Of a DNA stretch of 64,000 nt, positions 6,885 to 49,035 are shown piece by piece. The notes under the pieces were generated by a model. It saw nothing but the letters and a program-made list of their open reading frames with translations, was not told the DNA's origin and made no database searches. The stretch comes from Candidatus Adlerbacteria bacterium RIFOXYC1_FULL_48_26. GTDB taxonomy: Bacteria; Patescibacteriota; Minisyncoccia; Phycocordibacterales; SBAW01. Position numbers and translations under genes: made by a program. Each line of letters starts with the position of its first letter. The first letter of the stretch is position 1. The stretch is taken from positions 10,217 through 74,216 of the forward strand of contig MEXB01000004.1 of assembly GCA_001773575.1 (NCBI GenBank), given 5' to 3'.

Positions 6885-7187
6885 AGAAGGGGTTGTGGTG
6901 GGTTGCTTTAAGATAAGCCTATTGGGTCCTCGCCCTGCAGTTTCAGCAATTAAATGGCTTCGTTAAGCCACTTCATCTATCATTCATCAAGTACTATCTA
7001 ACTATATAAAAGGAGGGGGGAGGGTCAACTTGACGATTTGGTATCTGTGGACAATGGTTGGGCTGGGCCGGAAATATCCTACCCCGTAAGGGTATATTTA
7101 GATGAAGATACCCTATTTACAGCTGAGCAAAGCTGTATCGTAGTATTAAAGTTAGGGGAATTGTGGGTCTCGGGGTACTTTATAGAG

Positions 7188-9098: not shown

Positions 9099-9875
9099 AT
9101 GTATAAGAAGAAATCACTCGGACAGAATTTTTTGAAAAGCCCGGCATATTTGCAGGCTATTGTTGATGCTGCCGGCGTGCAGAAGGGAGACTTGGTACTT
9201 GAGATTGGACCAGGAGAAGGCGCGCTTACAGAAGAAATCCTTGCGCGCGGAGCGACAGTGGTTGCAGTAGAAAAAGACCACAGGCTTATTCCTATGCTCC
9301 AAGTGACATTCGATAAACAAATTTACAGCAAACAACTTGAACTTATTGAAGCTGATGCGCTAGAACTTGAGGCAGAAAAATTAGTAGGGAAAAAAGAATT
9401 TAAATTAGTCGCAAATATTCCCTACTACATCACAGGAGCACTGCTTAAAAAATTCCTTTCAGAAGAAACTGTTCAACCAAGCACTCTTGTATTTTTAGTT
9501 CAAAAAGAAGTTGCTGAACGAATTGCCAAAAGTAAAAAAGAAAGTATTTTGTCGCTTTCAGTAAAAGTATATGGGGAAGTGGTGTATGTAAAAACTGTTC
9601 CGCGTGGCGCCTTCAGCCCAGCCCCAGACGTTGACTCTGCAATTTTGCTTGTTAAAGATGTTTCAAAAAAGAATTTTCAAAACGAAAAAGAAGAGCAGCG
9701 ATTCTTTACACTCGTACGCGCAGGCTTCTCACAAAAACGAAAGAAATTGAAAAACAACCTTACAGGCGTATTTGGTTCAGAAACTTCTGCACGCATGGAA
9801 GCTGCAGGTATTCCACAAGACGCACGCGCCGAAGACGTAGCGCTGGAGCAATGGCTTACGCTCACTAAGGTCTAG
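9099..9875 (+). CDS. rsmA: 16S rRNA (adenine1518/1519-N6)-dimethyltransferase
   Basis: KSLGQNFL N-terminus, VLEIGPGEGALT SAM motif, NIPYYIT. Confidence 0.9.
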   Translation: MYKKKSLGQNFLKSPAYLQAIVDAAGVQKGDLVLEIGPGEGALTEEILARGATVVAVEKDHRLIPMLQVTFDKQIYSKQLELIEADALELEAEKLVGKKEFKLVANIPYYITGALLKKFLSEETVQPSTLVFLVQKEVAERIAKSKKESILSLSVKVYGEVVYVKTVPRGAFSPAPDVDSAILLVKDVSKKNFQNEKEEQRFFTLVRAGFSQKRKKLKNNLTGVFGSETSARMEAAGIPQDARAEDVALEQWLTLTKV

Positions 9876-10350
9876 GGAGTAGGCTTTGGTTGGCCCACTG
9901 CATGCGCTCACCAAGAAGTGGTGGGACAGGAATCCAAAATGGATACGCTGGTATCTGGCAACTAAACGGTGCTGTTGGGATAGAAGGAGGCGGACAGCAG
10001 AAGTACGGTATATCCGCTATTCCTAGTATTTGTTGCCCTATGACGTATGGAGGAGGGTCAGGATTGGGTGAAGGAGGGTATAAAGGAAGTAGCCCAGGCG
10101 CCGGCACACCTCGTAAAGTCATCGGCGTCCATATATAGAAAGGTTGTTTCGTGGCAGGCGCTGGAACAATTGTTACGAACTGCGCAGGACCCGAATAACT
10201 TAAGCAGGGGACAAACGCTGCCACTTTCCCTCCGAAGGAGAGCCCGCTTACAGCCGCCGACGCTGAGGCTGGTGTAACCAAGAGCGTGAGCGAGAAAATT
10301 GAAGAAATGATGGAGCTTAGAATACCCATATCCATATTATACTGTAGAGA

Positions 10351-11241
10351 ATGGATACGGGCCGATATCTTCCCAGTAAGCAGTTTTCTCTGATAACTAT
10401 CTCTCTGTTTCTTTCAGCTGGTCTTGTATTTGCCGCAGAACATATACATAAGCCTTCTACAGGCTCACTTGCTGTAGATACTACAGGCGCAGCACCCGCA
10501 GGTGCAGGCGACTGGAAGGCCTCTCTTGAGAGTGTGCAGCAAAATTCGGGCATTTCACTTCCTTCTGCACCCGATCAAAATACCGTAGAAGGCCTTTTAC
10601 AAGCCGCTCAAAGCAACAACCTCACGGAAAGCGTGTCACGAAGCCTGTTCGTGAACCTCGTTAATGCCAAAGGGCAAGGGCTTGGTAGTGATATTCCGAC
10701 ACAAGACCAAATAGTTACCCAGGCCCTTTCTCAAGTGCCTGCCTCTATCCGCACAAAGACCTACTTTACAGAAGATCTTACGCTTACTGATACTTCAAAG
10801 ACCTCATTACACGCCTATGGCAATGCGGTAATGACGGTTCTACAGAAAAACTCCAACCAAGAATACGCAAAGACACTGGTTATTATTGACGCTGTTACGA
10901 CAAAAAATGACGCAACCCAGCTTGAACTCCTAAAACCAATTCAAAAAACCTACAAACACATATCCAACGAGCTAATTGCCATACCTGTTCCAAAAATACT
11001 TGCACCGTTCCATCTTCAGCTTGTAAACGATTTTGAAAACATAACCGCAACATACGACAAGTTCGAGGCTCTCGTTGGTGACCCTCTTAACGGAATTGCG
11101 GCAATCCAACAATATCGAACGCTTACGCAGGATGCAGGCCAAATGTTCATAAACATCGCACAAACTTTCCAGAAGAACGATATAATTTTCAATAAGGACG
11201 AGCCGGGGGCGACGTGGGCTTTTCTTCTGCAATCGCAGTAA
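10351..11241 (+). CDS. Hypothetical secreted/membrane-anchored protein (first gene of the T4SS-like cluster)
   Basis: N-terminal hydrophobic segment ITISLFLSAGLVFAA. No recognisable domain. Confidence 0.5.
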   Translation: MDTGRYLPSKQFSLITISLFLSAGLVFAAEHIHKPSTGSLAVDTTGAAPAGAGDWKASLESVQQNSGISLPSAPDQNTVEGLLQAAQSNNLTESVSRSLFVNLVNAKGQGLGSDIPTQDQIVTQALSQVPASIRTKTYFTEDLTLTDTSKTSLHAYGNAVMTVLQKNSNQEYAKTLVIIDAVTTKNDATQLELLKPIQKTYKHISNELIAIPVPKILAPFHLQLVNDFENITATYDKFEALVGDPLNGIAAIQQYRTLTQDAGQMFINIAQTFQKNDIIFNKDEPGATWAFLLQSQ

Positions 11242-11247
11242 ATCACA

Positions 11248-13413
11248 ATGAATAAAAAATTCGTTTATATCATCCTCATCGCCCTCGCAATCTTTCTTTT
11301 AGTTGCGCTGCTATGGTGGTGGTTTTTGCGAAGGGAAGGGAATGCAATTCAAAACACCGGCACCTTCGGCACTGCACAAAACGCACAAAACAATGCGACC
11401 TCTAGCAACGGAACCCCAACTAACATCGGCACTCCATTGGGGCCAGATGTGGATCTGGGCGTAGAACAACCCAATACTCCGCTTGGGAGCATTGGGCAAA
11501 ATACCGCAAATGGCCAAGTACCGAATCAGCCTGGTGGAACTGGAGTAACTACTGTTGGGCCCATTACTGTTGGAACTCCTGTGGTGGTTGGCACAGTGGG
11601 GGTACCAAATGTTGTATGGCTCTCAGGAGATCCCGCGAGCACAACTACCGGAGGCATCACAAACAGTCCAGGTACGGTCTTTAACCCAACTGCTATAAAC
11701 GAGATTGTTTCATCAAACCCGACCGGCAACGGCGGGATTACACCTAACATTGGGTACAACGGGTACGGACAACAACAAGGAAGTGGTAGCGGTTCAGCGC
11801 TTGGCTCCATCGGAATAGCTGCTGGAGTAGGGGTGGTTAGTTGTGCCGTAGTTCCTGCGATGCAGGCAGTAGCACAAGCTCTTGGTTTTGCAGAAGCGAC
11901 CGGCAAACAAGCAGCTGCGCAAGCAACAGCGAGCGGCGCGGCTGCTGCTGTTGCCGCAATGAGCGTCTCAACTGTTGACCTCGGCACAAACACTCGTCTT
12001 GCGCTTGGTCTTCCAGCTCTATCTGGACAAATAGGTCAACTTGGCGGCAATCAAACCAGCCAACAGACTATTGATCAATTCATGGGGTGTATTACGCGCA
12101 ACATAGCAAAAATTATGTTGCAGCAGATCACCAACAGTGTGGTTAACTGGATCAACTCTGGCTTTAATGGCTCCCCAGCATTCGTTCAAAACCCAACACA
12201 GTTTATTCAGAAGACAGCTGATGTTATTGCAGGCCAATATATTCAAAGCAGTGCACTCTCATTCTTGTGTAGCCCATTTCAGCTGCAGGTAAGAATTGCC
12301 ATTGCGCAAAGCTACGCAAACCGCAGTAGCGCTGCCTCCTGCACACTGACACAAGTTTCAAACAATATAACCAACTTTATGCGCGGCTCCTTCAGTACAG
12401 CGGGAGGATGGCCAGCTCTTTTGTCATTCACCTCTATGCCCACCAACAACCCTTATGGTGCGTTTATGTACGCATCCGCAGGGATTTCGTTGGTTACCTC
12501 AAATGCCCAAAGGCAGGTTCAAACAGATTTGCTGCAGGGCAGCGGGTTCCTTTCCTTCCAGCAAAAAGTTGCCGGCAGCTGTGTAACCACTGCCTCACCT
12601 CCAGCGCCAAGCTTGAACAAATCAATAACCCCTAAAGGCGGACCTACCAATTCATCCCAACAACTATACGAGGTCTGCGACTACGTTACTGCAACACCGG
12701 GCAAGGTTATTGCTGACTCTCTAGGCGCAACAGAAAAAAGCACACTCGACCAGCTCACCTTGGCAAAAAGTTTTGATGAAATCATCAGCGCACTCATCAA
12801 CCAGCTGATGACTCGCACACTGCAAGGCGGTCTTTCGAACTTGAGTGGTGCGAACGGCTATGCAAGCAATTTCTATACAGCCGACCAACAGCAGGCGCAA
12901 AATGGACAGCAAGCACTACTTGCCCAAATGCAAAGCGACACAGCAACTGCCGGCCAATACGGTAGTGTCCAGCAGGGAAGTATCCAGGATATTCAAAGCG
13001 CTCAGAACCAACTCAACAACGCATATAACTGCTGGAATAATGTTGCGCAAGCAAGCACCACTGCAACAATAACGCCTTCCACCCAAGCACAAGCTCTCAC
13101 AAACGCAGCAACTGCATCTACAACCTTCAACTCTCTAAACACGACTATCGACTCTTATAACGATAGAATTACGAAGGTGAACGTTGCAATAATTGCGCTC
13201 CAAGAATTGCAGAGCCGTGTGCTTTCAGTTTCATCAGGTTCTGATTTGTCCTCAATTCAAAGCGACTACAACGCCGCAAAAGCGTCTGGCCAATTCCCAA
13301 CAGGAGCCGATGTAACCAATGCGCAACAAAACCGTGTCACGCTACAAAGCCAAATGTCGACAATAAGCCAGCAAGCAAACGACTCTCTCCAACAATGCAA
13401 TGCTATTTTCTAA
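11248..13413 (+). CDS. Large low-complexity (G/T/N/Q/S-rich) membrane-anchored protein
   Basis: N-terminal TM (YIILIALAIFLLVALLWWWF), about 200-aa Gly/Thr/Asn-rich region, Q/N/S/T-rich C-terminal half. Confidence 0.55.
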   Translation: MNKKFVYIILIALAIFLLVALLWWWFLRREGNAIQNTGTFGTAQNAQNNATSSNGTPTNIGTPLGPDVDLGVEQPNTPLGSIGQNTANGQVPNQPGGTGVTTVGPITVGTPVVVGTVGVPNVVWLSGDPASTTTGGITNSPGTVFNPTAINEIVSSNPTGNGGITPNIGYNGYGQQQGSGSGSALGSIGIAAGVGVVSCAVVPAMQAVAQALGFAEATGKQAAAQATASGAAAAVAAMSVSTVDLGTNTRLALGLPALSGQIGQLGGNQTSQQTIDQFMGCITRNIAKIMLQQITNSVVNWINSGFNGSPAFVQNPTQFIQKTADVIAGQYIQSSALSFLCSPFQLQVRIAIAQSYANRSSAASCTLTQVSNNITNFMRGSFSTAGGWPALLSFTSMPTNNPYGAFMYASAGISLVTSNAQRQVQTDLLQGSGFLSFQQKVAGSCVTTASPPAPSLNKSITPKGGPTNSSQQLYEVCDYVTATPGKVIADSLGATEKSTLDQLTLAKSFDEIISALINQLMTRTLQGGLSNLSGANGYASNFYTADQQQAQNGQQALLAQMQSDTATAGQYGSVQQGSIQDIQSAQNQLNNAYNCWNNVAQASTTATITPSTQAQALTNAATASTTFNSLNTTIDSYNDRITKVNVAIIALQELQSRVLSVSSGSDLSSIQSDYNAAKASGQFPTGADVTNAQQNRVTLQSQMSTISQQANDSLQQCNAIF

Positions 13414-15958
13414 ACCCCTGACATACGGCGAAGGGAACACTCTACGACGCATCGTAGCGGGTTTTTTGCTCTTACTCGTATTTTTGCTACCTATTCAAAA
13501 TGTTTTGACTACACCTGTTGTCTCTGTAGCACAAGCTCAAACCACAGGCACAAGCGCGAGTGCCTCGTTCTGTAGCGAGGCAAGTACCTGCCTTACCAGC
13601 ATCGTATATTTGTTCGCGGTCTATATACCAACAAACTTTGCATACGCTGCCGGGTACCTCTTTAATGCCGCCCTGCAACTTGCCTTAAACAGTGCCTCCT
13701 ATGCATTGAACTTTCTTTCTTTGGGATGGACTATTGTGCGCGACATCGCCAACCTGACCTTTATTTTTATCCTTATATACATCGCGTACATCATTATCAT
13801 GCGCGCGGAGAGTTCTGGAACAATGAAGATGTTGGCCTGGGTTATCGCGATGGCCTTGCTCATTAACTTCAGTTTCTTTATAACGCGTATGGTTATCGAC
13901 GCGGGCAATATTCTTTCCGTACAGTTTTATAACGCTATAAACATTCCCAACTCCATACCCTCGCCTCTGAGTGCTCAGCAATGTCCGCCAAACTGTATCA
14001 AAGACCTCACAGGGGGAATTATGGATGCGGTAAAAGTTCAAGGTATTTTGGGTGATAAATCATTCGCTGCCTTTATGGCATCGTCTGGGAATAGTCTTGG
14101 GTCATTTGGTACAAACGTGCTCGTACAAACACTGGTGTTCGTTTCAGTTGGAATATTTTTATCACTACTTGGGTTTGTATTTCTTATCGTTGGTATTAAA
14201 TTTATGGTCCGCATTGTAGTGCTGTGGCTCACGATAGTAGCCTCTCCACTTGCGTTCGCAGCACACGCACTTCCTAACAACAAAAAAGTTATGGGGTATT
14301 ACCAGATGTGGCAGGATAACCTCATACAGTCGGCATTTTTCCCTGCAATATTCTTATTTTTGTTTTTCATAATGAACTTGTTCTTACAGGCGTTGGCTGG
14401 CGGGAAAGGCCTTGTGCCCGATATTTTCAATGCTGTTGCACAAATAAATACATCTGGGGCTGGTAATGTTGAGGCAGGAATAAGTGTTATTGCAAACGTC
14501 GGAGTCCGTATGGGCTTGGTAATAGTGTTGTTGTACTTCGCCATGAAAGCTTCTGATTCCTTCAGTGCAATGGGGAGCGGAATGGCAAACAGTGTTACAA
14601 GCTGGGCAGGAAGCAAGGCTGCAAATATGACCGCCGGAACTTCTTCGTGGCTTGCTCGAAACAGCGCTGGCCGACTCGCAAACACAGCCGCGCGTAGTGC
14701 AACAGTGCGCGATTGGGCGGCTAAAAACCCGCTCTATGGCGGACGTCTAGTGTCCGGTGCTCTTAACAAAGCAGCGACCTCAAGTCTTGATGTGCGCGGT
14801 ATTGGAGGTCTGAAAAGCCTTGTGGGTAAGGCGGGTTTTGATCTGAATGGCCCCGGCGGCAAAGGAGGCTATAGAAAACAAGAAGCTGACAGGGCACATG
14901 ACGCTGAAAAATTTGCAAAGGGCCTTAAGAGTGATGCGGTATATGTAAAGAAAAATGCTTTGACTGCAGGACTATCCGCATATGATAAGGCCAACGGTAA
15001 AGGATCTGTCGCTGAATTGGAAAAAATCCAAGCACAAGGAGCTGCTGCAGCAATTCAACAGTACGCAGCTCAGTATGATGCAAATAGAGCAGCAGGTGAT
15101 ATGTCATTTAAAGAGAAGTTGGATAACCTTGAGAAGGCGCGGGTTTTAGCCACAAAAGATGCAGAGAGTCACAAAACTGCGGGTAATACAGTTGAGGAAG
15201 CGAAAGCTCGAGCTGCTGCCGCGGCTGCTTCTCAGGCATTTGCTTCAGAAGACGCGAAAAGTAAACAGAAATATGCAGATGCCGTTAAAGATCTGAGTGC
15301 AATGCGAAAATTGGGTGAAGTCTCTATTAAAGAGGCGGATAAAAAAAGAATTTATGGAGCTGCAGATTACGAAGAAAGTCGCCGTTTTGGAAACATGTAT
15401 ATGCCTTCGGTTGGGAATATTGAAGGTGCCGATCATATGCGCCATGTAATGCACGAGAAGAGTGATAAAGAGAAACTTAAAGATCTAGCAGCTAAGGTTG
15501 CGTTGGCCGATCAGGCACCTCCTGCACCTGTCGCACAAACACCAACTCCTACAGCTCCTTCCGGTGGAGGATCGAAGCCAACCCCACCACCTTCAGGAGG
15601 GGATCATGGCAACGATCACGGCGCTGGCCACCACATGACCTTTAAAGCCATGAGAACAGAGGCTCAGAAACCTGGAGGGTTGAAAGGAAGCACTGAAGCT
15701 CTCCATAACGAGGTGTTTGGCGAAGATATGTTGAAACGTCTCGACGCTCGAATGAGAAATATACAGGAAAATACATCAGCCCAAGGAGCACAGATGGGAA
15801 ATATCCAGCAATCTATAGACATACTTAGCAGGGCAGCACAGCGTCAAACGCCTTCAACTCCAACAGGACCAACGACATACGGAGATATTGCAGCAGGCAA
15901 AGGTGCGATGCGACCCAAAACACCTGGAGATAATCAACAGAAACCTCCTAGGGCATAG
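13400..15958 (+). CDS. Polytopic membrane protein, VirB6/TrbL-like, with about 450-aa hydrophilic Lys/Ala/Glu-rich C-terminal tail
   Basis: Signal peptide, at least 6 predicted TM helices, then a charged low-complexity tail with PPAP/TPTPT linkers. Topology matches the VirB6/TrbL family; no motif-level proof. Confidence 0.5.
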   Translation: MLFSKPLTYGEGNTLRRIVAGFLLLLVFLLPIQNVLTTPVVSVAQAQTTGTSASASFCSEASTCLTSIVYLFAVYIPTNFAYAAGYLFNAALQLALNSASYALNFLSLGWTIVRDIANLTFIFILIYIAYIIIMRAESSGTMKMLAWVIAMALLINFSFFITRMVIDAGNILSVQFYNAINIPNSIPSPLSAQQCPPNCIKDLTGGIMDAVKVQGILGDKSFAAFMASSGNSLGSFGTNVLVQTLVFVSVGIFLSLLGFVFLIVGIKFMVRIVVLWLTIVASPLAFAAHALPNNKKVMGYYQMWQDNLIQSAFFPAIFLFLFFIMNLFLQALAGGKGLVPDIFNAVAQINTSGAGNVEAGISVIANVGVRMGLVIVLLYFAMKASDSFSAMGSGMANSVTSWAGSKAANMTAGTSSWLARNSAGRLANTAARSATVRDWAAKNPLYGGRLVSGALNKAATSSLDVRGIGGLKSLVGKAGFDLNGPGGKGGYRKQEADRAHDAEKFAKGLKSDAVYVKKNALTAGLSAYDKANGKGSVAELEKIQAQGAAAAIQQYAAQYDANRAAGDMSFKEKLDNLEKARVLATKDAESHKTAGNTVEEAKARAAAAAASQAFASEDAKSKQKYADAVKDLSAMRKLGEVSIKEADKKRIYGAADYEESRRFGNMYMPSVGNIEGADHMRHVMHEKSDKEKLKDLAAKVALADQAPPAPVAQTPTPTAPSGGGSKPTPPPSGGDHGNDHGAGHHMTFKAMRTEAQKPGGLKGSTEALHNEVFGEDMLKRLDARMRNIQENTSAQGAQMGNIQQSIDILSRAAQRQTPSTPTGPTTYGDIAAGKGAMRPKTPGDNQQKPPRA

Positions 15959-15980
15959 AAAAAGAATGTAGAATAGAGGT

Positions 15981-16640
15981 ATGCCAGAGAACTCTGCAGA
16001 CTCAATTCAAAACCAAATAGAGCAGCGTCTTACTGAACTGCCTCAAGATGTACGAGATGTCGTACTCTCTTCACAACTTGGAGAGCGTTTACGCGAGATC
16101 GGCCAAAAACACGGCCTTCATATAGATCAAATTGGTGTATTAGAAGACGAAGTGATGCTCGTGATGCTTGGGTTTTTTGAACCTGAAGACTTTAACAACC
16201 AGATTGCCAACCAGCTTCATCTCTCCACCCTCGACGCAACAGCTATAGCACAGGAGATCAACCAGGTGATATTCCTCCCAATTCGTGAATCTATGATAGC
16301 GTTTGCTGCCTCAAAGCGCGCAGCTAAGCCTGTAACCGAGCCTGCGCAAGACCGTCCGATCGGTTCTGTTGAACCGCGGCCCGATCTTGCTTCGGCACCT
16401 GCCCGTCCGGCAGGCGGGTCCACGTTACCTGTAGCGGTTACGGCACCTAACAACATCCCAATTAGGATTGAAACGCCGCAGCAGAACCCGGCTGTGGAGC
16501 CGAAGACCGACGCAGAGGGTTCTGCGCCGGCAAAACCACCAATGCCTCCGATGCCAAATGCAGAAAAAATGCTGACAGAGACAACTGTTGCAAAACCAAT
16601 CTATAAAACTGATCCATATCGAGAACCTATAGAGCCGTAG
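15981..16640 (+). CDS. Hypothetical protein with Pro-rich C-terminus
   Basis: ORF with an RBS. Shares a near-identical 55-58-nt segment with the ORF at 2540-3760. Confidence 0.5.
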   Translation: MPENSADSIQNQIEQRLTELPQDVRDVVLSSQLGERLREIGQKHGLHIDQIGVLEDEVMLVMLGFFEPEDFNNQIANQLHLSTLDATAIAQEINQVIFLPIRESMIAFAASKRAAKPVTEPAQDRPIGSVEPRPDLASAPARPAGGSTLPVAVTAPNNIPIRIETPQQNPAVEPKTDAEGSAPAKPPMPPMPNAEKMLTETTVAKPIYKTDPYREPIEP

Positions 16641-16671
16641 TTGCAGAAATTTTGATATATACTAAGGGGGA

Positions 16672-17073
16672 ATGCGATATCAAGTTCCTCAATTTATCGA
16701 AGTTGAAGATAAAATATTCGGGCCGCTAACCCTGAAACAATTTGTGTACTTGGCCGGCGGGGGAGGCCTATGCCTCGCGTTTTTTACTCTGCTCCCATTC
16801 TATATATTCGTCACACTCGCTATTCCAGTTATGGCTCTCTCTTTAGCGCTCGCATTTTACCGAGTAAACGATCGTCCATTTTTAACCTCAATTGAGCATG
16901 CGTTCGGTTTCTACACCAACAGCAAGCTCTATTTATGGAAACAACGCCCACCTGAACTCGTACAGAAACAAGCTGCCATACAGCCAATTACCCCAGCAAT
17001 GGTTCCTAAACTTTCAGAAAGCCGCCTCAAAGACCTCGCGTGGTCGTTGAATATAAAGCAGACAAACGAATAA
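16672..17073 (+). CDS. PrgI/VirB3-like small two-TM protein
   Basis: N-terminal VPQFIEVEDKIFGPLTLKQF signature followed by two TM helices. Strong RBS aagggggaATG. Lies immediately upstream of VirB4. Confidence 0.55.
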   Translation: MRYQVPQFIEVEDKIFGPLTLKQFVYLAGGGGLCLAFFTLLPFYIFVTLAIPVMALSLALAFYRVNDRPFLTSIEHAFGFYTNSKLYLWKQRPPELVQKQAAIQPITPAMVPKLSESRLKDLAWSLNIKQTNE

Positions 17074-17076
17074 CAT

Positions 17077-17742
17077 ATGGCTGACGCACCTATAAAAGCA
17101 CAAGCTACTCAAGATTTCGTACCTATAAAAGAAGTGCGGAACGGCGTTGTAATACTAAAAGATGGCTCTATGCGAGCGCTTCTTATGGCATCTTCTATAA
17201 ACTTGGCTCTCAAATCTCAAGACGAACAGAACGCCATCATCGGACAATTTCAAAACTTTCTAAACTCACTTGAATTCACCGTTCAATTTTTCGTTGAAAG
17301 CCGCGACCTCGACATCCGCCCCTATATCGCGATCTTGGAAGAGCGTTATGTCGCAGAACTCGACGACCTGATGAAAATCCAAATCCGAGAATATATAGCC
17401 TTCATCAAAGATTTCACCGCCCGTTCAAACATCATGTCGAAAAACTTTTTTATCGTAGTTCCGTACGATCCGGCGCTTGTTGGGAGAGGGAAGGGAGTTG
17501 CAGGAGCCTTCAATGCACTCGTTCCGTCAAAGAATTCAAGCAATAATGTACTCACTGACGAGCAGTTTGAGCAATACCGAACTCAATTAGAACAGCGTGT
17601 CTCCGTCGTCGAGCAAGGCTTAGTGCGCACAGGTGTACGTATCGCACCACTGGGAACTGAAGAAATTATCGAGTTATTCTATAAACTGTTTAACCCTGGC
17701 GAACTTGAGAAACCTCAACAAGTAACTCAGATGGTTCGCTAA
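17077..17742 (+). CDS. VirB4-family ATPase, N-terminal domain (split gene, part 1)
   Basis: DFVPIKEVRNGVVILKDGSMRALLMASSINLALKSQDEQ resembles the N-terminal domain of Gram-positive-type VirB4 (TcpF/PrgJ). Stop at 17740-17742; next gene starts 4 nt later in the +1 frame. Confidence 0.6.
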   Translation: MADAPIKAQATQDFVPIKEVRNGVVILKDGSMRALLMASSINLALKSQDEQNAIIGQFQNFLNSLEFTVQFFVESRDLDIRPYIAILEERYVAELDDLMKIQIREYIAFIKDFTARSNIMSKNFFIVVPYDPALVGRGKGVAGAFNALVPSKNSSNNVLTDEQFEQYRTQLEQRVSVVEQGLVRTGVRIAPLGTEEIIELFYKLFNPGELEKPQQVTQMVR

Positions 17743-17746
17743 CTAT

Positions 17747-19579
17747 ATGGCACTTTTTGGACTAATAAAATCAAAAGACGAAGGGCAGGTGCCGGCAATG
17801 GCGCCCATAATGCCTGAACAAATTTACCGCCAGGGTGTTTTGGAGTTGCAGGATGTTATCGCGCCCTCAGCGCTCAAAATCACCTCGCGCGAACTTAACT
17901 TGGGCGACAAAATTGCACGAACATTCTTCGTTATGTCATACCCACGCACATTGGTGGACTCGTGGTTTGCCCCAATCATCAACCTGGACCGCGTTCTGGA
18001 TATCTCTGTGTTTATCCACCCAATAGACTCGGCTGAAATCCTCAAAAAATTCCAGAAAAAGGTAGCTGAGGTGCAAAGCCAGATTATTTCCCGCGAAGAC
18101 AAAGGCCTTGTGCGCGACCCTATTTTGGACACGGCATATAGAGATTTGGAGGATTTGCGTGACCAACTCCAGCAAGCAGAGGAACGTATTTTCGACGTTG
18201 GCGTCTATATAACGGTGTATGGCAAGACAATAGAGGAGCTTGATAAAACAGAAAGCGAAATAAAGTCGATGCTTGAAAGCCGTCTTATTTATGTAAAACC
18301 AGCCCTATTCCAGCAAGTACAAGGCTTTAGAAGCACGCTTCCACTGGCGACAGACGAATTGAATGTAAATTCAAAGCTAAATTCTTCGCCGCTCTCCTCT
18401 ATATTTCCATTCGTATCCTTCGACCTTACATCTGATAAAGGAATTCTGTACGGAGTTAACCGACACAACGCCAGCTTGGTGTTGTTTGACCGTTTTAGTT
18501 TGGAAAACTACAACTCAGTTATCTTCGCAAAATCAGGTTCAGGTAAATCCTACGCCACAAAGTTGGAAATTCTCCGTACGCTTATGTTCGATACAGAGGT
18601 GATCGTTATTGACCCAGAACGTGAATACGAATTTTTGAGCCAGACTGTTGGTGGCCGCTACTTCAATATTTCCCTCACATCAGAACACCACATTAACCCT
18701 TTCGACTTGCCTATACCGCGCGAGGACGAAAACCCTGCAGACATTTTGCGCTCGAACATTGTGTCTCTCGTTGGGTTGTTCCGCATTATGTTGGGAGGCC
18801 TTAGCCCTGAAGAGGACGCGATTATCGACAAGGCTATTACTGAAACCTACGCGCTTAAAGACATCACTGTTGACTCTAACTTCGCTGAAATAGAACCACC
18901 GCTCCTTTCTGACTTTGAGACGGTACTTTCTGGTATGGATGGGAGTGAGTCATTGGTTCAGCGCCTCTCTAAGTACACAAAAGGTACATGGTCTGGGTTT
19001 ATCAACCAGGCAACAAACGTCGACATCAATAAAAAATTCGTCGTGTTCTCAGTCCGCGACATGGAAGATGACCTTAAGCCCGTCGCGATGTATATCATTA
19101 CGCACTATATATGGAACGCGGTTCGTAAAAACCTTAAGAAACGCCTCCTTGTTATCGACGAAGCGTGGTGGATGATGAAATCGGAGGACACAGCATCCTT
19201 CCTCTACAGCATGGCAAAGCGCGGCCGTAAGTATTACTTGGGCCTTGCAACTATTACCCAAGACGTTGATGACTTCTTGAAATCTCCTTATGGGTTACCG
19301 ATGATCACCAACTCGTCTATTCAAATATTGCTTAAACAGTCGCCCACAACTATAGATAACCTGCAAAAAACCTTTAACCTCTCAGATGAGGAGAAGTATT
19401 TGTTGCTTGAATCGGATGTAGGGGAGGGCATCTTCTTTGCCGGCCTTAAGCACGTCGCTATAAAAGTCATCGCCTCATATACTGAAGACCAGATAATCAC
19501 CTCTGACCCATCGCAAGTGCTCGCAATCCGTAAACAACAAGCTGAAGTTGCAGAAGGTCGTGCTCCAGCAGCTCAGTAA
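17747..19579 (+). CDS. VirB4-family conjugative/secretion ATPase (split gene, part 2)
   Basis: Walker A FAKSGSGKSY and Walker B LLVIDEAWWMM, with VirB4-like middle and C-terminal domains. Confidence 0.85.
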   Translation: MALFGLIKSKDEGQVPAMAPIMPEQIYRQGVLELQDVIAPSALKITSRELNLGDKIARTFFVMSYPRTLVDSWFAPIINLDRVLDISVFIHPIDSAEILKKFQKKVAEVQSQIISREDKGLVRDPILDTAYRDLEDLRDQLQQAEERIFDVGVYITVYGKTIEELDKTESEIKSMLESRLIYVKPALFQQVQGFRSTLPLATDELNVNSKLNSSPLSSIFPFVSFDLTSDKGILYGVNRHNASLVLFDRFSLENYNSVIFAKSGSGKSYATKLEILRTLMFDTEVIVIDPEREYEFLSQTVGGRYFNISLTSEHHINPFDLPIPREDENPADILRSNIVSLVGLFRIMLGGLSPEEDAIIDKAITETYALKDITVDSNFAEIEPPLLSDFETVLSGMDGSESLVQRLSKYTKGTWSGFINQATNVDINKKFVVFSVRDMEDDLKPVAMYIITHYIWNAVRKNLKKRLLVIDEAWWMMKSEDTASFLYSMAKRGRKYYLGLATITQDVDDFLKSPYGLPMITNSSIQILLKQSPTTIDNLQKTFNLSDEEKYLLLESDVGEGIFFAGLKHVAIKVIASYTEDQIITSDPSQVLAIRKQQAEVAEGRAPAAQ

Positions 19580-19598
19580 ATCAGGTTACAATAGAAAC

Positions 19599-20282
19599 AT
19601 GCACACGGCGCGCAACTCGTTGCTGATTCTCTTTGCAATCCTCCTAGATATCCTGCAGGCAGGTATTTCTGCGGGATTGTTTATGATGGGAGCATTTCCC
19701 GGCACAGTTGGAGGCGCCGCTGGCGGCTGTTTTATAGGTGCGAAAGTCGCAGGCTCCGTCGGTTGTGCGATCGGTGGTACAGTTGCCGGGTTTGCCGGAA
19801 GTGTTGTAAATGTTGCCTCTGCAGCGACTCTTCCTTTTGCAGTTGGGCTTGGGTTTGCTGTTAATTTTTGTATTAGTGCAACCCTCGGGGTCATACTTGT
19901 CGCATGGCTTTGGTCCCTCGGTATGTATAAATTTGGACCTGGTATAACAGGTTTTATAGTTGAACTTACTCCAGGCCTTGCCGTAGTGCCCGGTTGGACC
20001 ATGATGACAATTCTCTGTGTAGTACGCAAAACTGCTGAAGAGAAAAAACTTGTTGGATCTACAGGAAGTCTATTTACCACATTTGCAACGACTGGAATAG
20101 CGGGGGCTGGTGCCTTTGCCGCGTTTGCAATTAACCAAGGCACTGCGCGCAGAGCTCGTGAGGCAGGGGTGTTTACACAAGAAGAACAAGATCAGAATCT
20201 CGCCGAAAAGAAACAATTTGTTTCAACTGAATTAAAAAACATTGATGGTATCCGAGCAAAAAACCAAGCCTATGCAGCATAA
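19599..20282 (+). CDS. Gly/Ala-rich polytopic membrane protein (glycine-zipper helices)
   Basis: Several GxxxG-rich hydrophobic helices. Start placed at the first ATG after the VirB4 stop. Confidence 0.45.
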   Translation: MHTARNSLLILFAILLDILQAGISAGLFMMGAFPGTVGGAAGGCFIGAKVAGSVGCAIGGTVAGFAGSVVNVASAATLPFAVGLGFAVNFCISATLGVILVAWLWSLGMYKFGPGITGFIVELTPGLAVVPGWTMMTILCVVRKTAEEKKLVGSTGSLFTTFATTGIAGAGAFAAFAINQGTARRAREAGVFTQEEQDQNLAEKKQFVSTELKNIDGIRAKNQAYAA

Positions 20283-21291
20283 ATTTTTTATACTTCTTGC
20301 CGTGTTTTTTATGAGTGTGGGGTTTGCTCACGCCCAGACATCTCTACCTGACCCAGTACAATACGTTGTCATACCGGAAACTCCAGGGCCCAACCAACAA
20401 GTGACTATTGAAGTAAGCGGTGTTGGTACATTTTTAGGTAATGCGGCTATTACCTGGCAGATGGATGGAAAAACTGTGGGTGGGGCAACGGGCCGAACAT
20501 TTACCTTTACTACAGGTGGTATCGGTAGCCCAACCAATATTCGTCTGACTATAAACTCAGCAACTCAGGGTATCATTTCTCACAACTTTGCCTTTAACCC
20601 TTCTGTTATTAACTTAGTATGGGAGGCGGACACCTACACACCGCTTTTATATAAGGGTAAGGCTCTCTACAGCGCTGGCTCTAGCCTCCGTGTTGTAGCG
20701 TTTCCAACAGTACTTATTGGAAAAACGCTTATAGCTAGCAACAAACTTTCATTCCAGTGGTCACGAAATGATACCCCGGACCCCTCCTCGTCGGGCTTAG
20801 GGAAAAATGTATTTTCATTCTATGGCGACCAACTAAACACAGAGGAGAATGTTGTGGTTGATGTATATTCCGGCGGAGTCAAAGTAGGGCAGGGCCGCAT
20901 AACAATACCCGCATCAAAACCCACGGTTATTATGTATTCTGTGGACCCACTTCGTGGAACATTGCTTGGCACAGCCTTTCAAACTGGTTTTGCGCTTCCT
21001 CAAACAGAGACAACACTGAAGGCAGAGCCGTATTTCTTTTCAAATATTAGTTTTACGCGCGGACAAATAAAATATAACTGGTCATTGGGTGGGGAAGAGA
21101 CCACAGGCCCTGATGCTGCAAAAGGGTTACTCACGCTTAGACAAACTGGAACGGGGAGCGGCTCTGCGAATATTTCCGTAGATGTGCAGAACAACGAAAA
21201 CGATAAATTGATCCAGGCAGCAAGCGCCAACCTCAACCTTCTTTTTGGACCACAAACCGGCTCATCCATCCTTAACCTTTTTGGTTTATGA
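20272..21291 (+). CDS. Hypothetical secreted protein
   Basis: Signal peptide MQHKFFILLAVFFMSVGFAHA, then a beta-rich sequence. Confidence 0.5.
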   Translation: MQHKFFILLAVFFMSVGFAHAQTSLPDPVQYVVIPETPGPNQQVTIEVSGVGTFLGNAAITWQMDGKTVGGATGRTFTFTTGGIGSPTNIRLTINSATQGIISHNFAFNPSVINLVWEADTYTPLLYKGKALYSAGSSLRVVAFPTVLIGKTLIASNKLSFQWSRNDTPDPSSSGLGKNVFSFYGDQLNTEENVVVDVYSGGVKVGQGRITIPASKPTVIMYSVDPLRGTLLGTAFQTGFALPQTETTLKAEPYFFSNISFTRGQIKYNWSLGGEETTGPDAAKGLLTLRQTGTGSGSANISVDVQNNENDKLIQAASANLNLLFGPQTGSSILNLFGL

Positions 21292-22061
21292 AAAAATACC
21301 TTCTTAATTTCATAGGCATACTCTTCTTCTTTGGTGTGGTTTTTTCACCAGGAACCTCTCAAGTTACTCATGCACAGATAACCACTTCCGGATGCTATAC
21401 CTGCTCTACATCAGCAAGCAACAGTTGTACTAGGGTTGGTACGCCAGATATAAATGGCGTCTGCGCACAAGGGAATCCTATATACGTAAATGGTGAAACT
21501 GGGCAATATGCTCCTGGCACAGGTGTTCAAAATAATCTTTCATATACACCTCTTGAACCAATACCTGGGCAAGCTGGAGTCGCAACAGATTTTTGTGGCC
21601 TATTAAATACATTATTTAAAGTTTTGATCTATCTAGGAGGAATGGTCGCAGTGCTCTTCTTGGTGCTTGGTGGAATTACCTACATGGTTTCAGAGGTAGT
21701 GGACAAGCGTTCCATGGCACGTGAGCGTATAAAGTCTTCTATAATTGGGTTGATCATACTTCTAAGTACCTATCTGATTCTCTTCACCATAAACCCCACC
21801 TTGGTGAACGCATGTAATGTGCTTAATGGAAACACGGGCGGAGTTGTTCAATCTCAATCGAGCGTTGCTGCAGAAAATGCACAGAAAATTGCTGCGGCTA
21901 AAGCGCAGTGTGAAAGAAATTCGGGCTCAAAATTTTGTATAGTGCCAAATAATGGTACGTGCCAAACAATTACTCCATACCAGGCGGCGATATGCGAAAA
22001 CATAACGCCCGGGCAAATCTGTGTTACACGCACACTCTGGTTCGGAGGGGGATGTCAGTAA
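21288..22061 (+). CDS. Putative T4SS pilin (VirB2/TrbC-like topology) with Cys-rich N-domain
   Basis: Signal peptide, Cys-rich about 60-aa segment, then two hydrophobic helices separated by a short basic loop (LIYLGGMVAVLFLVLGGITYM...KRSMARERIKSS...IIGLIILLSTYLILF), plus a C-terminal Cys-rich tail. Confidence 0.45.
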   Translation: MKKYLLNFIGILFFFGVVFSPGTSQVTHAQITTSGCYTCSTSASNSCTRVGTPDINGVCAQGNPIYVNGETGQYAPGTGVQNNLSYTPLEPIPGQAGVATDFCGLLNTLFKVLIYLGGMVAVLFLVLGGITYMVSEVVDKRSMARERIKSSIIGLIILLSTYLILFTINPTLVNACNVLNGNTGGVVQSQSSVAAENAQKIAAAKAQCERNSGSKFCIVPNNGTCQTITPYQAAICENITPGQICVTRTLWFGGGCQ

Positions 22062-22064
22062 AAA

Positions 22065-23279
22065 ATGAAAAATACTATTTACATAATCTCAGTAATCCTT
22101 GTCTTAGGCCTAGCCCTAGGAGGAGCATTTCTCTTTTTCCGACCCTCTTCAACTCCAGGACAAACCTCTTCCGGCGGACTCTTTGGGTTTGGAAGCACCG
22201 CGACGAATGTGCCAAGCACAGGCGATGACACAAACACTCCCCAAGTAGGAATTTCAACACTACAGAGTATCTTCAAGCTCGCAGACGGGCCTATTGCTGG
22301 AGCAGCTTTTACACAAACATTTAAACCAACAACAACAGTCGCACGCTACACCCGTGCCGATAACGGCCACGTGCTTGATATACCTATAGGCGTATCTGGG
22401 GCTGTGGCACGCGCTGTGTCGAACGTTACTGTTCCAGGCATTACATCCTCAGTCTGGACAACCTTCGGTAGCTCAACGGTTATGCAGTATGTGGACTCAG
22501 GTATTGTTAAAACCATGTATGTGGCCTTTAGTGTCGCTAGCTCAACCGTTGCCAACTCTCCTGTAACTCCATCCCGCATACGTTTCCTCCCTAACGGCAT
22601 TGTTTCGTTTGCCCTAGATCCAAAAGACACTCGCGTTGCGTACCTACTCCTTAACAGCAGTGGGGGCGTGGATGGGTATATTTCGAATCTCGACGGAACG
22701 AGTGTAAAAAATGTATTCTCACTACCGTTATCTCAAGCAATAGTGTCTTGGCCATCAGCAAATACATTACTCGTACAAACAAAGAGCGCGTTTGGTGTCC
22801 CTGGAGTTGCATATTCAGTGAACGCGACCACAGGCGCCTTATCACCCCTTCTATACGCACCAGGCCTCTCTACATCAGCAAATAAAAACTTTACAAAAGT
22901 TGTATATCAAACAAATGCAGATAATAACGCGACAACCTATTCGCATGACATGGCGACAGGGAAGGACGCGCCTCTCGTAAATAACCCTCTACCTGAAAAG
23001 TGTGTATGGAGTATTCTTCCTGCCACCGATGCGTACTGTGCAGTACCACTTGAGGTAGTGCCATCAAACTACATGGATCTTTGGCATCAAGGATTAGTTC
23101 AGACTGCAGATGCCATCGTTAATCTTGATACAAACACAGGTATAGGAAGTGTTGTCACCTTGCCGGGGGACGGGGGAGTGAATAGCAGTATAGAGCAGCT
23201 AGTACTTTCTCCAGACGGAAATTATCTAATGTTTATCACACGCGGAGACCAAGCGCTTTGGGGAGTAAAGCTGCGCTAA
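22065..23279 (+). CDS. Hypothetical membrane-anchored extracellular protein
   Basis: N-terminal TM IYIISVILVLGLALGGAFLFF followed by a Ser/Thr/Val-rich beta-type sequence. Confidence 0.5.
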   Translation: MKNTIYIISVILVLGLALGGAFLFFRPSSTPGQTSSGGLFGFGSTATNVPSTGDDTNTPQVGISTLQSIFKLADGPIAGAAFTQTFKPTTTVARYTRADNGHVLDIPIGVSGAVARAVSNVTVPGITSSVWTTFGSSTVMQYVDSGIVKTMYVAFSVASSTVANSPVTPSRIRFLPNGIVSFALDPKDTRVAYLLLNSSGGVDGYISNLDGTSVKNVFSLPLSQAIVSWPSANTLLVQTKSAFGVPGVAYSVNATTGALSPLLYAPGLSTSANKNFTKVVYQTNADNNATTYSHDMATGKDAPLVNNPLPEKCVWSILPATDAYCAVPLEVVPSNYMDLWHQGLVQTADAIVNLDTNTGIGSVVTLPGDGGVNSSIEQLVLSPDGNYLMFITRGDQALWGVKLR

Positions 23280-23280
23280 A

Positions 23281-23772
23281 TTATTTCTTACGAAAGGCGA
23301 GGACTATGTGACGGAATTTTCCTTCACCCTCTGAACGAGTTTCAATTTCAGCGTCATTTGCAAACAGTTCGTGCACTACGAGGCGTTCGTATGAACTCAT
23401 AGGCTCCATCTCTACTTCGTGCTTAAAAAGACGCACGCGTTGTGCGAGTGTACGTGCATTAGCACGCACCTGCTCCATCTGTTGTTCGTGATAGTTATTG
23501 AGGTCTATAAGAAATTGCCCCGCATCCTCTCCATGTTGTTTTTCAATAATACGGCGTGCAAGAATTTGGAGTGAGCGCAACCCTTCTGCTTGGTTGTTTA
23601 AAAGATGTTCAGCTTCCGTTGAGGTAACTGAAACAACTGTGCGCGCGCCTTGCGACACAGAGATATCGCTGTATGAGAAGCCGAGATGGCCGAGGAAGGT
23701 TCCAATAAAGGATTTGAGTTCTTCGGCTTGCATAGAGCCACAATACTCTAAATGCCCCTCGCTATGCAACAA
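23281..23772 (-). CDS. jag: Jag/KhpB-like RNA-binding protein (KH plus R3H)
   Basis: C-terminal R3H-like segment ERLVVHELFANDAEIETRSEGEGKFRHIVL. Located downstream of yidC as in the canonical rnpA-yidC-jag operon. Confidence 0.7.
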   Translation of the reverse strand: MLHSEGHLEYCGSMQAEELKSFIGTFLGHLGFSYSDISVSQGARTVVSVTSTEAEHLLNNQAEGLRSLQILARRIIEKQHGEDAGQFLIDLNNYHEQQMEQVRANARTLAQRVRLFKHEVEMEPMSSYERLVVHELFANDAEIETRSEGEGKFRHIVLAFRKK

Positions 23773-23792
23773 CTACCAGGCTGCTGGCTATA

Positions 23793-24521
23793 TTATGCTG
23801 CCTTTTCCGCCAGCATTTGGCGCTGGATAAGCCATTCTTGAGCAAGAGAGATGACGCTGCCCGCAATGAAGTAAACACCGACAGCGGCAGGGACTGAGTA
23901 TGAGACAACACCCATAAGGGCAGGAAGGAAGTACAACATTATCTTGCGCTGCATACCCATCATGCGCTCTTTGTCCGTTTGTTTCGCTGAAGATTTCGGA
24001 GTATCCATACGTGCAAACGAGTAAAGAACAACGGCATATTGAAGAACGGCCACAAGAATAGCTATAACGAAGTTGTGGGTTGCTAACAAATCTACAAGTC
24101 CAAAGAAGTTTGTTGAGATAACGGAAGGAACATGCACGAATGAGTAGAGAAGGTCTGTTGCGATAGGGTTAAGGCCTTCGTTAAAGAATGCGTAGTACAG
24201 CGCGATAAACACTGGTATTTGTACGAGAAGTGAGAGGAACGCGCTGATTGGACGTACTTTATGCTTGCGAAACAACGCCATTGTGAGCTCTCCGCGTTTT
24301 TGCGCATCGTCTTTGTGTTTAGTATTGATCTCATCGAGCTCGCCCTGCAGTGCCTGCATACCCATCTGAGTGCGAATATTTGAAGCAAACAAAGGATAAA
24401 ATATGATACGGATGATGAGCGTTACTGCAATAATCGCAAGACCGACATCACCAGCTGGCATTATGCCAATCAAGAAAATAAATGTGTTGTAGAACGGATC
24501 GATAAGAAGTGTGTGGAACAT
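23793..24521 (-). CDS. yidC: Membrane protein insertase YidC/Oxa1 (short form)
   Basis: LIIRIIFYPLF...ELTMALFRKHKVRP motifs and five TM helices. Adjacent to rnpA. Confidence 0.9.
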   Translation of the reverse strand: MFHTLLIDPFYNTFIFLIGIMPAGDVGLAIIAVTLIIRIIFYPLFASNIRTQMGMQALQGELDEINTKHKDDAQKRGELTMALFRKHKVRPISAFLSLLVQIPVFIALYYAFFNEGLNPIATDLLYSFVHVPSVISTNFFGLVDLLATHNFVIAILVAVLQYAVVLYSFARMDTPKSSAKQTDKERMMGMQRKIMLYFLPALMGVVSYSVPAAVGVYFIAGSVISLAQEWLIQRQMLAEKAA

Positions 24522-24524
24522 AGT

Positions 24525-24833
24525 TTAATTTTTTAACAATACCACTAAATCATTTAGGAATGCTGGTGTGAGGGGACCCGCAGGAACTTTCTGAATAAAG
24601 ATTACCGCAGTGCCTGTCCCTTTGTATGCGGTGAGCGCTCGGTACAATGCCCGACGCAATCTATTACGCTCAACTGCTTTTTTAGCAACCTTCTTAGATA
24701 CTACAGCAGAAGCGCGTAAAACATTGCTCCCTGTTACATATTTTGCAGAAAGTAGGGAAGCGCGGCGTGAACGCCCCGCCGCCAGTACATCTTTCACTTC
24801 CCGAGCAGACAAACGTCTACGTTTTGGGAGCAT
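24525..24833 (-). CDS. rnpA: RNase P protein component
   Basis: Basic 102-aa protein MLPKRRRLSAREVKDV.. next to rpmH. Confidence 0.85.
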   Translation of the reverse strand: MLPKRRRLSAREVKDVLAAGRSRRASLLSAKYVTGSNVLRASAVVSKKVAKKAVERNRLRRALYRALTAYKGTGTAVIFIQKVPAGPLTPAFLNDLVVLLKN

Positions 24834-24844
24834 AGGAGTTTAGT

Positions 24845-24979
24845 TTAGACCGAAACCTTTGAGCGGCCCTTGCGGCGGCGGCGCTGCATGGTCTTAACGC
24901 CTCCCGGAGTAGCCGAGCGCTTTAGGAAACCGTGCGAACGTGCGCGTTTGCGCTTTTTTGGTTGATAGGTTTGTGACAT
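24845..24979 (-). CDS. rpmH: 50S ribosomal protein L34
   Basis: 44-aa ORF MSQTYQPKKRKRARSHGFLKRSATPGGVKTMQRRRRKGRSKVSV, not in the ORF track because it is under 60 aa. Canonical position upstream of rnpA. Confidence 0.85.
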   Translation of the reverse strand: MSQTYQPKKRKRARSHGFLKRSATPGGVKTMQRRRRKGRSKVSV

Positions 24980-25137
24980 AGGTAATTAGGACAATACCAC
25001 AACTGATTTGATAAGGAAACCCCGCCAAGGTCGGACCTTGTCAAACTGAGTTTATACACAGTTACTCCACAATGTTCTGCACATGTGGTTTTTTTGACGG
25101 CAAGGGTTTGAGCGCGTATCCTTACACCACTACCGCC

Positions 25138-26484: not shown

Positions 26485-26693
26485 TGTGGATATGTGGTTG
26501 TATAGGGGTGGGGAGAACAGCTGAATATCGTATGAAGAAGTCCTCGAAGAAGTAGTTGTCCACAAAAGAAGTCCTTTCATACCAACAGGTAAACAGAAAC
26601 GTATGTTCCTTGCGGAGCTTATGAAATAACGCTAATTTTGAGTTATCCAGATATACACAGCTATAGTAGTAATAAGGTTTTATTAAAGAAAAA
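26485..26693. promoter_or_regulatory. Putative oriC (dnaA-dnaN intergenic): DnaA-box-like 9-mers plus AT-rich DUE
   Basis: tgtggatat (26485-93), ttgtccaca (26556-64) and ttatccaga (26643-51) each differ by 1 mismatch from TTATCCACA or its complement. A 33-nt AT-rich stretch ctatagtagtaataaggttttattaaagaaaaaa sits immediately before dnaN. Confidence 0.6.
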
Positions 26694-49015: not shown

Positions 49016-49035
49016 GCATCGGCAGGACACTACAC

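Follow-up and report, generated by a model that had tools for sequence, protein, structure and literature searches.

The eleven genes g1 to g11 at positions 10351-23279 of a 64,000-nucleotide window (the whole stretch of DNA analysed) from Candidatus Adlerbacteria RIFOXYC1_FULL_48_26, a member of the Parcubacteria group of Patescibacteria, very probably encode an intact, chromosomal and vertically inherited type IV secretion system (T4SS) of the kind typical of Patescibacteria, in its Paceibacteria/Adlerbacteria form. By homology, the core comprises a membrane platform (g3 and g5), a VirB4 motor in two pieces (g6 and g7) and a VirB2-like pilin (g10). The best explanation of the system is descent from MPF-FATA conjugation machinery, no longer coupled to DNA processing, and we infer that, powered by VirB4, it most likely forms a pilus or conduit used in host-cell contact.

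All eleven open reading frames (ORFs) lie on the forward strand and are tightly packed, with spacings of -14 to +31 nucleotides (nt), exactly where an initial annotation, made from the letters alone, had placed a run of eleven co-directional genes:

g1, 10351-11241, + strand: 296 amino acids (aa); N-terminal membrane anchor or signal, probably surface-exposed
g2, 11248-13413, + strand: 721 aa; N-terminal transmembrane (TM) segment, G/T/N/Q-rich linker, conserved Cys domain and C-terminal helical bundle
g3, 13400-15958, + strand: 852 aa; extended VirB6/TrbL-like polytopic membrane protein
g4, 15981-16640, + strand: 219 aa; soluble, probably cytoplasmic protein
g5, 16672-17073, + strand: 133 aa; PrgI/VirB3-like membrane protein
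g6, 17077-17742, + strand: 221 aa; TrsD/TraD-like, the VirB4 N-terminal part encoded as a protein of its own
g7, 17747-19579, + strand: 610 aa; VirB4 ATPase, motor of the system
g8, 19599-20282, + strand: about 227 aa; Gly/Ala-rich (glycine-zipper-like) multi-TM protein, a variable accessory
g9, 20272-21291, + strand: 339 aa; secreted protein with three predicted tandem immunoglobulin (Ig)-like beta-sandwich domains
g10, 21288-22061, + strand: 257 aa; extended VirB2-like pilin
g11, 22065-23279, + strand: 404 aa; membrane-anchored, probably a TolB/PD40-like beta-propeller

By hidden Markov model (HMM) search, the g7 product, previously called a VirB4 ATPase by reading alone, scored 389 bits against the VirB4-like CD1110 family (NF045971; E = 3e-116; cut-off 325 bits), and it also matched TraC, VirB4_CagE and, at E = 1e-27, P-loop_TraG (PF19044). 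Its Walker A motif (AKSGSGKS, taken from the translation) and Walker B motif (LLVIDE) are both intact. The preceding gene, g6, has its stop 4 nt upstream of g7 and matched TrsD (NF041427) at E = 6.4e-10. Its product covers positions 2-116 of the CD1110 VirB4 model, with g7 covering positions 185-733 of the same model, and it aligns as well to positions 101-233 of the VirB4_plasma model; taken together, g6 and g7 make up a full-length VirB4. For comparison with relatives, we scanned one genome per species, which yielded at least 564 VirB4 relatives, and aligned the loci of the best 80, all from Paceibacteria/Parcubacteria. The split of VirB4 is kept among them, with a separate TrsD ORF in 78 loci and median lengths of 216 and 610 aa for the two pieces.

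The membrane platform, on which by homology the two-piece VirB4 docks, is formed by g5 and g3. The g5 product matched PrgI (PF12666; E = 2.3e-9, 38.1 bits, cut-off 27) and has a hydrophobic stretch at residues ~24-51. The window copy of g3 has no direct Pfam match. It carries about six TM segments within residues 1-400, followed by a hydrophilic tail of 452 aa, 25% of them charged, and lies directly upstream of the PrgI-VirB4 genes, like the corresponding genes of plasmid pCF10 and of Southlakia epibionticum. The TrbL/VirB6 domain PF04610 does occur among its homologues, in 2 of the 37 syntenic sequences and in 11 of the 119 from the database, and PrgH of pCF10 was its partner in the best of 80 hhalign pairs, itself a weak match (E = 0.002, probability 14%). 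We therefore assign g3 as VirB6-like from the domain in its homologues, its predicted topology and its hhalign partner.

The g10 product matched the T4SS pilin family PF18895 (E = 1.1e-10, 41.8 bits, cut-off 26.6). It comprises a signal peptide, a Cys-rich N-terminal segment, a two-helix pilin hairpin (residues ~105-170) and a Cys-rich C-terminal segment, with 12 cysteines in total, and shows weak matches to models of a pilin-like and a TM protein from integrative conjugative elements (ICEs) of Mycoplasma. At the same position in relatives, 52 of 58 proteins matched PF18895 and 7 matched TrbC/VirB2 (PF04956); their median length is close to 280 aa. In single relatives the pilin hairpin is fused to a subtilase (S8 peptidase), an SLT lysozyme-like or a CHAP domain. 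The inventory given by the initial annotation, a PrgI/VirB3-like protein, a split VirB4, a VirB6-like protein with a charged tail of about 450 aa and a Cys-rich VirB2-like pilin, was thus borne out by HMM searches and homologues.

The neighbourhood of the cluster is constant. The order uvrD-ksgA-[g1..g11]-jag-yidC-rnpA-dnaA-dnaN recurs in the 80 loci wherever the contig reaches far enough, and since order and flanks are the same in the 80 best-matching species genomes, the cluster is vertically inherited and not a mobile element. The flanking genes, which lie outside the machine, are as follows:

7038-9083, + strand: uvrD/pcrA-type helicase, upstream flank (Pfam UvrD-helicase and UvrD_C)
9099-9875, + strand: ksgA, upstream flank (RrnaAD recorded for the 258-aa gene in locus L081)
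23281-27791: origin-side flank with jag (-), yidC (-) and rnpA (-), then rpmH, dnaA and dnaN, from ORFs, translations and synteny
24845-24979, - strand: rpmH, origin-side flank
25072-26484, + strand: dnaA, origin-side flank
26694-27791, + strand: dnaN, origin-side flank

A distance of about 2 kb between the cluster and jag, as originally reported, proved wrong: g11 ends at 23279 and the stop codon of the convergent jag at 23281, one base apart, and dnaA starts 1.8 kb past this junction. Cumulative GC skew reaches its minimum at ~24-26 kb of the window, and three DnaA-box-like sites, each with one mismatch, occur in the dnaA-dnaN spacer (26485-26651); DnaA boxes are not enriched over the window as a whole, and the local trio is confined to this spacer. 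The skew turn and the trio both fit a cluster located beside the replication origin. We also observed that transcription of the whole 13-kb cluster, and of the genes upstream, runs toward the presumed origin and so collides head-on with the replication fork that moves leftward; all related loci have this orientation. A promoter and terminator scan was uninformative, with fewer promoter-like sites than in shuffled sequence, and an Rfam scan of the window returned tRNAs only. Divergent from g1 and overlapping the end of ksgA is a 156-aa Pro-rich ORF with a signal-like N-terminus (9865-10335, - strand), which is kept in the three closest loci only and has a gene call in public assemblies.

Conservation within the cluster is graded. 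VirB4 has the highest identity of the neighbourhood over the 80 species, at 75-91%, and these best 80 relatives of g7 are all from Patescibacteria; the corresponding values are 52-84% for DnaA, 37-71% for DnaN, 58-81% for TrsD and 49-64% for PrgI (g5; median 51% in 75 loci). The secreted or surface-exposed products g1, g2, g3, g9, g10 and g11 reach only 22-57%, with g1 found in 34-37 loci at about 25% identity and g11 in 64-65 loci. In these alignments VirB4, TrsD and PrgI appear as the frozen parts of the system and the surface proteins as its fast-changing parts, a combination that would fit an indispensable motor whose surface components track differing hosts.

The core parts are homologous to the conjugation machinery of Gram-positive plasmids and ICEs, so the cluster might in principle be an ICE, or the decayed remnant of one, with its relaxase, coupling protein and integrase encoded outside the cluster. 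Two neighbouring genes could be cited for this: the UvrD/PcrA-type helicase two genes upstream, and a tyrosine recombinase gene (L081 7524-8432) to the left of the window, some 2.5 kb from its first position. The recombinase, however, has the 302-aa XerC/D-type architecture (Phage_int_SAM_1 and Phage_integrase), and adjoins rpsO; between it and the cluster lie about 12 kb of housekeeping genes (rpsO, pnp, comM, uvrD, ksgA). It is the recombinase nearest to the cluster. At the cluster itself we found no tRNA gene within 17 kb, no meaningful flanking repeats and no shift in G+C content along the window. The constraint on VirB4, stronger than that on DnaA, is likewise unlike that expected of a decaying element.

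A survey of coding capacity gave the same picture. All window ORFs of at least 250 aa were accounted for, mostly as housekeeping genes by Pfam and in some cases (RuvB, TerC-like) by reading the translations: PNPase, ComM, an M23/LysM peptidase, UvrD, KsgA, DnaA, DnaN, PBP1, TyrS, RuvB, PilB, PolA, a Mur ligase, methyltransferases, a PLD-family protein, Nramp and TerC-like proteins, together with two restriction-modification genes and a 406-aa ORF (2540-3760) that had no match. No relaxase, coupling protein, VirB11, VirB9/10 or integrase was present among them, the sole T2SSE-family ATPase in the window being a 577-aa PilB with an MshEN domain (34566-36299), 11 kb away. In tblastn searches with pCF10 proteins, the coupling protein (PcfC), relaxase (PcfG), integrase and PrgK found nothing in the window or the 80 loci, and PrgJ, the VirB4 of pCF10, matched all 81. 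The absence of a relaxase, VirD4, VirB11, VirB9/10 and an integrase from the window had been noted at the outset, and ORF survey and tblastn agree with it. With identical position and flanks in the 80 best-matching genomes, and no tRNA, repeats, G+C shift, integrase, relaxase or coupling protein in the window, we rejected a mobile element; that the locus is an ICE or the decayed remnant of one is highly improbable and already largely refuted. The same synteny and uniform composition uphold the earlier view of a chromosomal, non-conjugative system centred on VirB4 and VirB6.

Domain searches of g1 to g11 revealed no VirB1-like hydrolase and no NTF2-like/VirB8-like protein, and hhalign comparisons against PrgK and PrgL were negative. 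More broadly, eight family profiles compared by hhalign with ten pCF10 proteins gave no equivalents of PrgK, PrgL, PrgD, PrgF, PrgG or PrgC. An M23 peptidase with two LysM domains is encoded 3.5 kb upstream of the cluster (5796-6884, - strand) and is syntenic in several relatives; it could possibly stand in for the missing VirB1-like wall hydrolase.

Among the remaining genes, the product of g2 has a strongly conserved Cys-containing domain at aa ~270-540 (12055-12867) with the motif WINSGFxGSPxFV ... NNPYGA, and its AlphaFold2 model is confident for the C-terminal helical bundle only. Comparing a g2 profile with Protein Data Bank (PDB) sequences returned nothing relevant, and fold searches likewise gave no assignment. 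The domain nevertheless defines a large family that has no Pfam model, with 4233 sequence clusters at E <= 1e-3 and 3058 at E <= 1e-10. Family members carry added peptidoglycan-binding, Ig-like, discoidin, PKD or fn3 modules, which point to a location at the cell surface. Among 72 full-length relatives, two matched DUF4141 (TraI of Bacteroides conjugative transposons), a match that was not reproduced with nine domain-only sequences, the consensus included, and that remains a lead only. We also considered a glycosidase; g2 was not called one because aa 270-540 lack any invariant acidic residue except D241 at the C-terminal edge.

Downstream of the motor, g8 encodes a small membrane protein with three to four TM-like segments (alanine 16%, glycine 14%) that is recognisable by sequence in 9 close loci only. 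Its position holds a small protein with 2-5 TM segments in 31 loci and nothing in about 25. A second pilin at this position was rejected, PF18895 being absent from 32 such proteins. The next gene, g9, occurs in 73-76 of the 80 loci, and its product is 100% identical to a protein annotated as hypothetical in Candidatus Adlerbacteria RIFOXYC1_FULL_48_26. The AlphaFold2 model of its product (pLDDT 84, pTM 0.71) places three tandem beta-sandwich domains after a signal peptide, and Foldseek matches to the model are arrays of Ig domains, including Hoc (1e-8), Sidekick, SiiE and fibronectin III; three Ig-like domains are accordingly predicted from the modelled fold. In database relatives, g9 is fused to a g8-type membrane protein (P0163, P0158) or to the pilin (P0182), fusions that connect g8, g9 and g10 in function.

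The g11 protein has one N-terminal TM segment. Its family profile matched 12 TolB chains weakly, at E = 4e-4 to 3e-3, and of its 40 homologues four carry PD40 and one DPPIV_N, so that the protein is probably a TolB/PD40-like beta-propeller. The g1 product has one TM-like segment (residues 11-29); the window copy has no Pfam or NCBIfam match, and the calcium-binding repeat TSP3_bac (PF18884) was detected in 14 of 36 syntenic homologues, with a best E of 2.8e-10. Lastly, g4 lies between the VirB6 and PrgI genes in 55-57 loci. It has no TM segment, and in the alignment an N-terminal part of about 100 aa is conserved, followed by a linker rich in proline and, at the C-terminus, by a DPYREP motif that is likewise conserved; a search with 39 homologues gave no family match.

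From these components we propose a working model. VirB4 would pull g10 out of the membrane and build a pilus or tube across the cell wall. The fast-evolving surface proteins g9, g11, g1, g2 and g8 would decorate, anchor or tip this structure and touch the envelope of the host cell, and the pilus or tube would serve as both attachment device and translocation conduit for epibiotic growth. Roles in DNA uptake or host contact, as opposed to conjugation, had been put forward in the initial annotation and match proposals in the literature (PMC12102498, PMC10633639, PMC12857230).

An alternative would be a dedicated DNA-uptake (competence) machine that feeds ComEC, akin to ComB or to Ced of Sulfolobales. 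ComB of Helicobacter pylori and archaeal Ced are VirB4-centred machines without a coupling protein or relaxase, and the VirB2/B3/B4/B6-like set of the window, likewise without these partners, resembles ComB in this respect. In the same direction point weak VirB4-level matches of the cluster to CedB and CedD and a comM gene 4.5 kb upstream, and import of DNA or other macromolecules has been proposed for the T4SS of Patescibacteria (PMC12102498). Yet g7 scored only 39.8 bits on the CedB model against a cut-off of 700, which reflects general VirB4 similarity only. Moreover, transformation of Southlakia is ascribed to type IV pili and ComEC, and a comEC deletion there stops transformation while the cells still grow; the T4SS, in contrast, is essential (PMC12857230). 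With ComEC dispensable and the T4SS not, the essential role of the latter in Southlakia would not be ComEC-dependent DNA uptake, and we regard a dedicated competence machine as improbable.

Export of effector proteins, injected or released to manipulate or damage the host cell, was also weighed. Possible protein export was suggested by Wang et al. (2023) on the ground that neither a coupling protein nor a relaxase is present (PMC10633639). The relatives in which pilin hairpins are joined to cell-wall hydrolase and protease domains, and the members of the g2 family with adhesion and glycan-binding modules, are consistent with it. On the other hand, no coupling protein that could recruit cytoplasmic substrates was found in the cluster, the cluster encodes no candidate effector, and the secreted products, each equipped with a signal peptide or anchor, could exit by the Sec pathway. 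Overall, we consider effector export rather unlikely.

The known T4SSs that lack a coupling protein either import (ComB, Ced) or export in a Sec-dependent manner (Ptl). Because of this, and because these bacteria are unable to make nucleotides, we tentatively prefer import of host macromolecules, for instance nucleic acids, to effector export, and judge it possible without holding it probable. Going further, we speculate that the lineage-specific outer proteins g10, g9, g11, g1 and above all g2 might constitute an apparatus for recognising and penetrating the host, mounted on a tube built by VirB4 through which Paceibacteria would import host RNA, with g2 as a previously unrecognised, VirB5-like stalk or tip, though we give this extended version little credence. 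The g2 gene is always directly upstream of the VirB6 gene, as is virB5, and as traI (DUF4141) lies beside traJ, the gene of a VirB6-like protein, in Bacteroides elements; it is this position that suggests a VirB5 analogue. A preprint of 2026 on a cultured, host-RNA-feeding relative describes tubular structures that reach the host and may be T4SS pili, and ties PNPase and VirB4 to host-RNA feeding in Patescibacteria (bioRxiv 10.64898/2026.06.21.733656). In the window, PNPase is encoded at 340-2571, about 8 kb upstream of the cluster, a nearness that may be coincidence.

Several points weigh against a VirB4-powered pilus or conduit for host contact. Evidence of essentiality comes from one Saccharimonadia species and from no Paceibacteria system, and no pilus has been demonstrated to consist of such pilins. 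The g10 product is 2-3 times longer than a classical VirB2 and, given this length and the enzyme fusions in relatives (S8 peptidase, SLT, CHAP), its pilin hairpin might be a mere membrane anchor. The cluster was found to encode neither a VirB8-like nor a VirB1-like protein. VirD4-like genes lie far from virB4 in most Patescibacteria (PMC12102498), and a coupling protein may thus be encoded elsewhere in the genome. Substrate and transport direction are pure inference. A VirB4-powered pilus or conduit nonetheless remains the reading we consider most likely.

Three other features of the window deserve mention. An apparent restriction-modification region at 49349-53030 encodes a Dcm-type C5 methylase, an NgoFVII-like restriction enzyme and a DUF2779 protein, and adjoins a tRNA-Ser gene. 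A 258-aa protein (47414-48190, - strand), about 22 kb from dnaA, has only a DnaA C-terminal helix-turn-helix domain recognisable and is possibly a regulator that binds DnaA boxes. Finally, two stretches of ~0.85-1 kb each (48242-49090 and 55083-56097) contain implausible ORFs only and have no Rfam match.

A considerable part of bacterial diversity belongs to the Patescibacteria, which grow attached to other microbes and are unable to synthesise nucleotides, lipids or amino acids. A T4SS of this kind is nearly universal among them and essential in the single species tested, which makes it a prime candidate for the device by which they exploit their hosts. The large g2 family, in particular, emerges as a target for structural and genetic work.

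Among known systems, ComB and Ced offer a functional analogy for import only. ComB differs by its outer-membrane parts B7-B10 and Ced by its CedA proteins, and Pfam and NCBIfam searches of the cluster proteins detected no homologues of ComB7-10 or of the CedA partners. A further comparison is with the ICEs of Mycoplasma: g7 scored 270 bits on the Mbov_0397 VirB4 model, g10 matched weakly the models of the pilin-like Mbov_0395 and the membrane protein Mbov_0396, and in this wall-less or single-membrane lineage, too, VirB4 comes together with a pilin-like protein. All of these scores, however, fall under the curated cut-offs (590, 70 and 40), and the Mycoplasma modules belong to mobile ICEs, whereas the window cluster has no integrase, no repeats and no patchy distribution.

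The likeness to the MPF-FATA systems of Gram-positive bacteria (prgH-prgI-prgJ of pCF10; trsC-trsD-trsE of pGO1/pIP501) extends to the CD1110-family VirB4, PrgI, the separate TrsD-type protein and the order of their genes. Unlike them, the window has no relaxase, PcfC-type coupling protein, PrgK-type hydrolase, PrgL-type VirB8-like protein or LPXTG adhesin, and its locus is chromosomal and fixed; it has instead a VirB2-like pilin, which is absent from the Gram-positive systems (PMC12857230). With no relaxase or coupling protein in the window and no VirB1-like hydrolase or VirB8-like protein in the cluster, it does not belong among the conjugative MPF-FATA systems.

In Southlakia epibionticum ML1, an unusual T4SS is encoded by SEML1_0006-0019, most genes of which were found by transposon sequencing to be essential for epibiotic growth (PMC10633639). 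A 2025 review presents the system as a new type of T4SS, pilus-bearing and essential, with which a bacterium that has a single membrane might assemble a pilus (PMC12857230). The Southlakia cluster shares with the window the order of a VirB6-like protein, PrgI, a ~290-aa protein at the TrsD position and a 612-aa VirB4 (SEML1_0013 to 0008), the presence of PF18895 pilins and the lack of a relaxase or coupling protein, and its low locus-tag numbers suggest that it is probably also near the origin. It differs in having an array of six short pilins, two VirB6-like proteins and an NTF2-like (VirB8-like) protein; in the window, a single pilin, long and Cys-rich, accompanies a single VirB6-like protein, an NTF2-like protein is absent, and Ig-like and beta-propeller proteins occur in addition. 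Essentiality has been demonstrated in Southlakia only.

The closest counterpart is the system surveyed by Quinonero-Coronel et al. (2025) in 3,035 genomes, of which 2,417 contained VirB4, mostly in a Patescibacteria clade nested within MPF-FATA (PMC12102498). There, the partners of VirB4 are TrsD, PrgI/VirB3, VirB6 and VirB2-like pilins, a relaxase being hardly ever present, and the window shares this complement, with no relaxase or coupling protein beside virB4. The g7 product may belong to the same clade; its identity as a VirB4 is firm, with 389 bits on the CD1110 family, and its closest relatives are all from Patescibacteria at 75-91% identity. In Paceibacteria and Microgenomatia the T4SS adjoins dnaA, dnaN, rnpA, ksgA and rpmH, and the Paceibacteria site corresponds to the window arrangement gene for gene. 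No essential difference was found; the other neighbouring genes were left unannotated in that survey, and g1, g9 and g11 are tentatively labelled here. The system was thus already published between 2023 and 2025 and the window adds no new kind. The initial view of it as incompletely described is still apt as regards its substrate, transport direction and most accessory proteins. To what was published our analysis adds the tentative labels, the fusions linking g8, g9 and g10, the large g2 family and the gradient of conservation, with the window providing a clean and intact Paceibacteria example of the T4SS.

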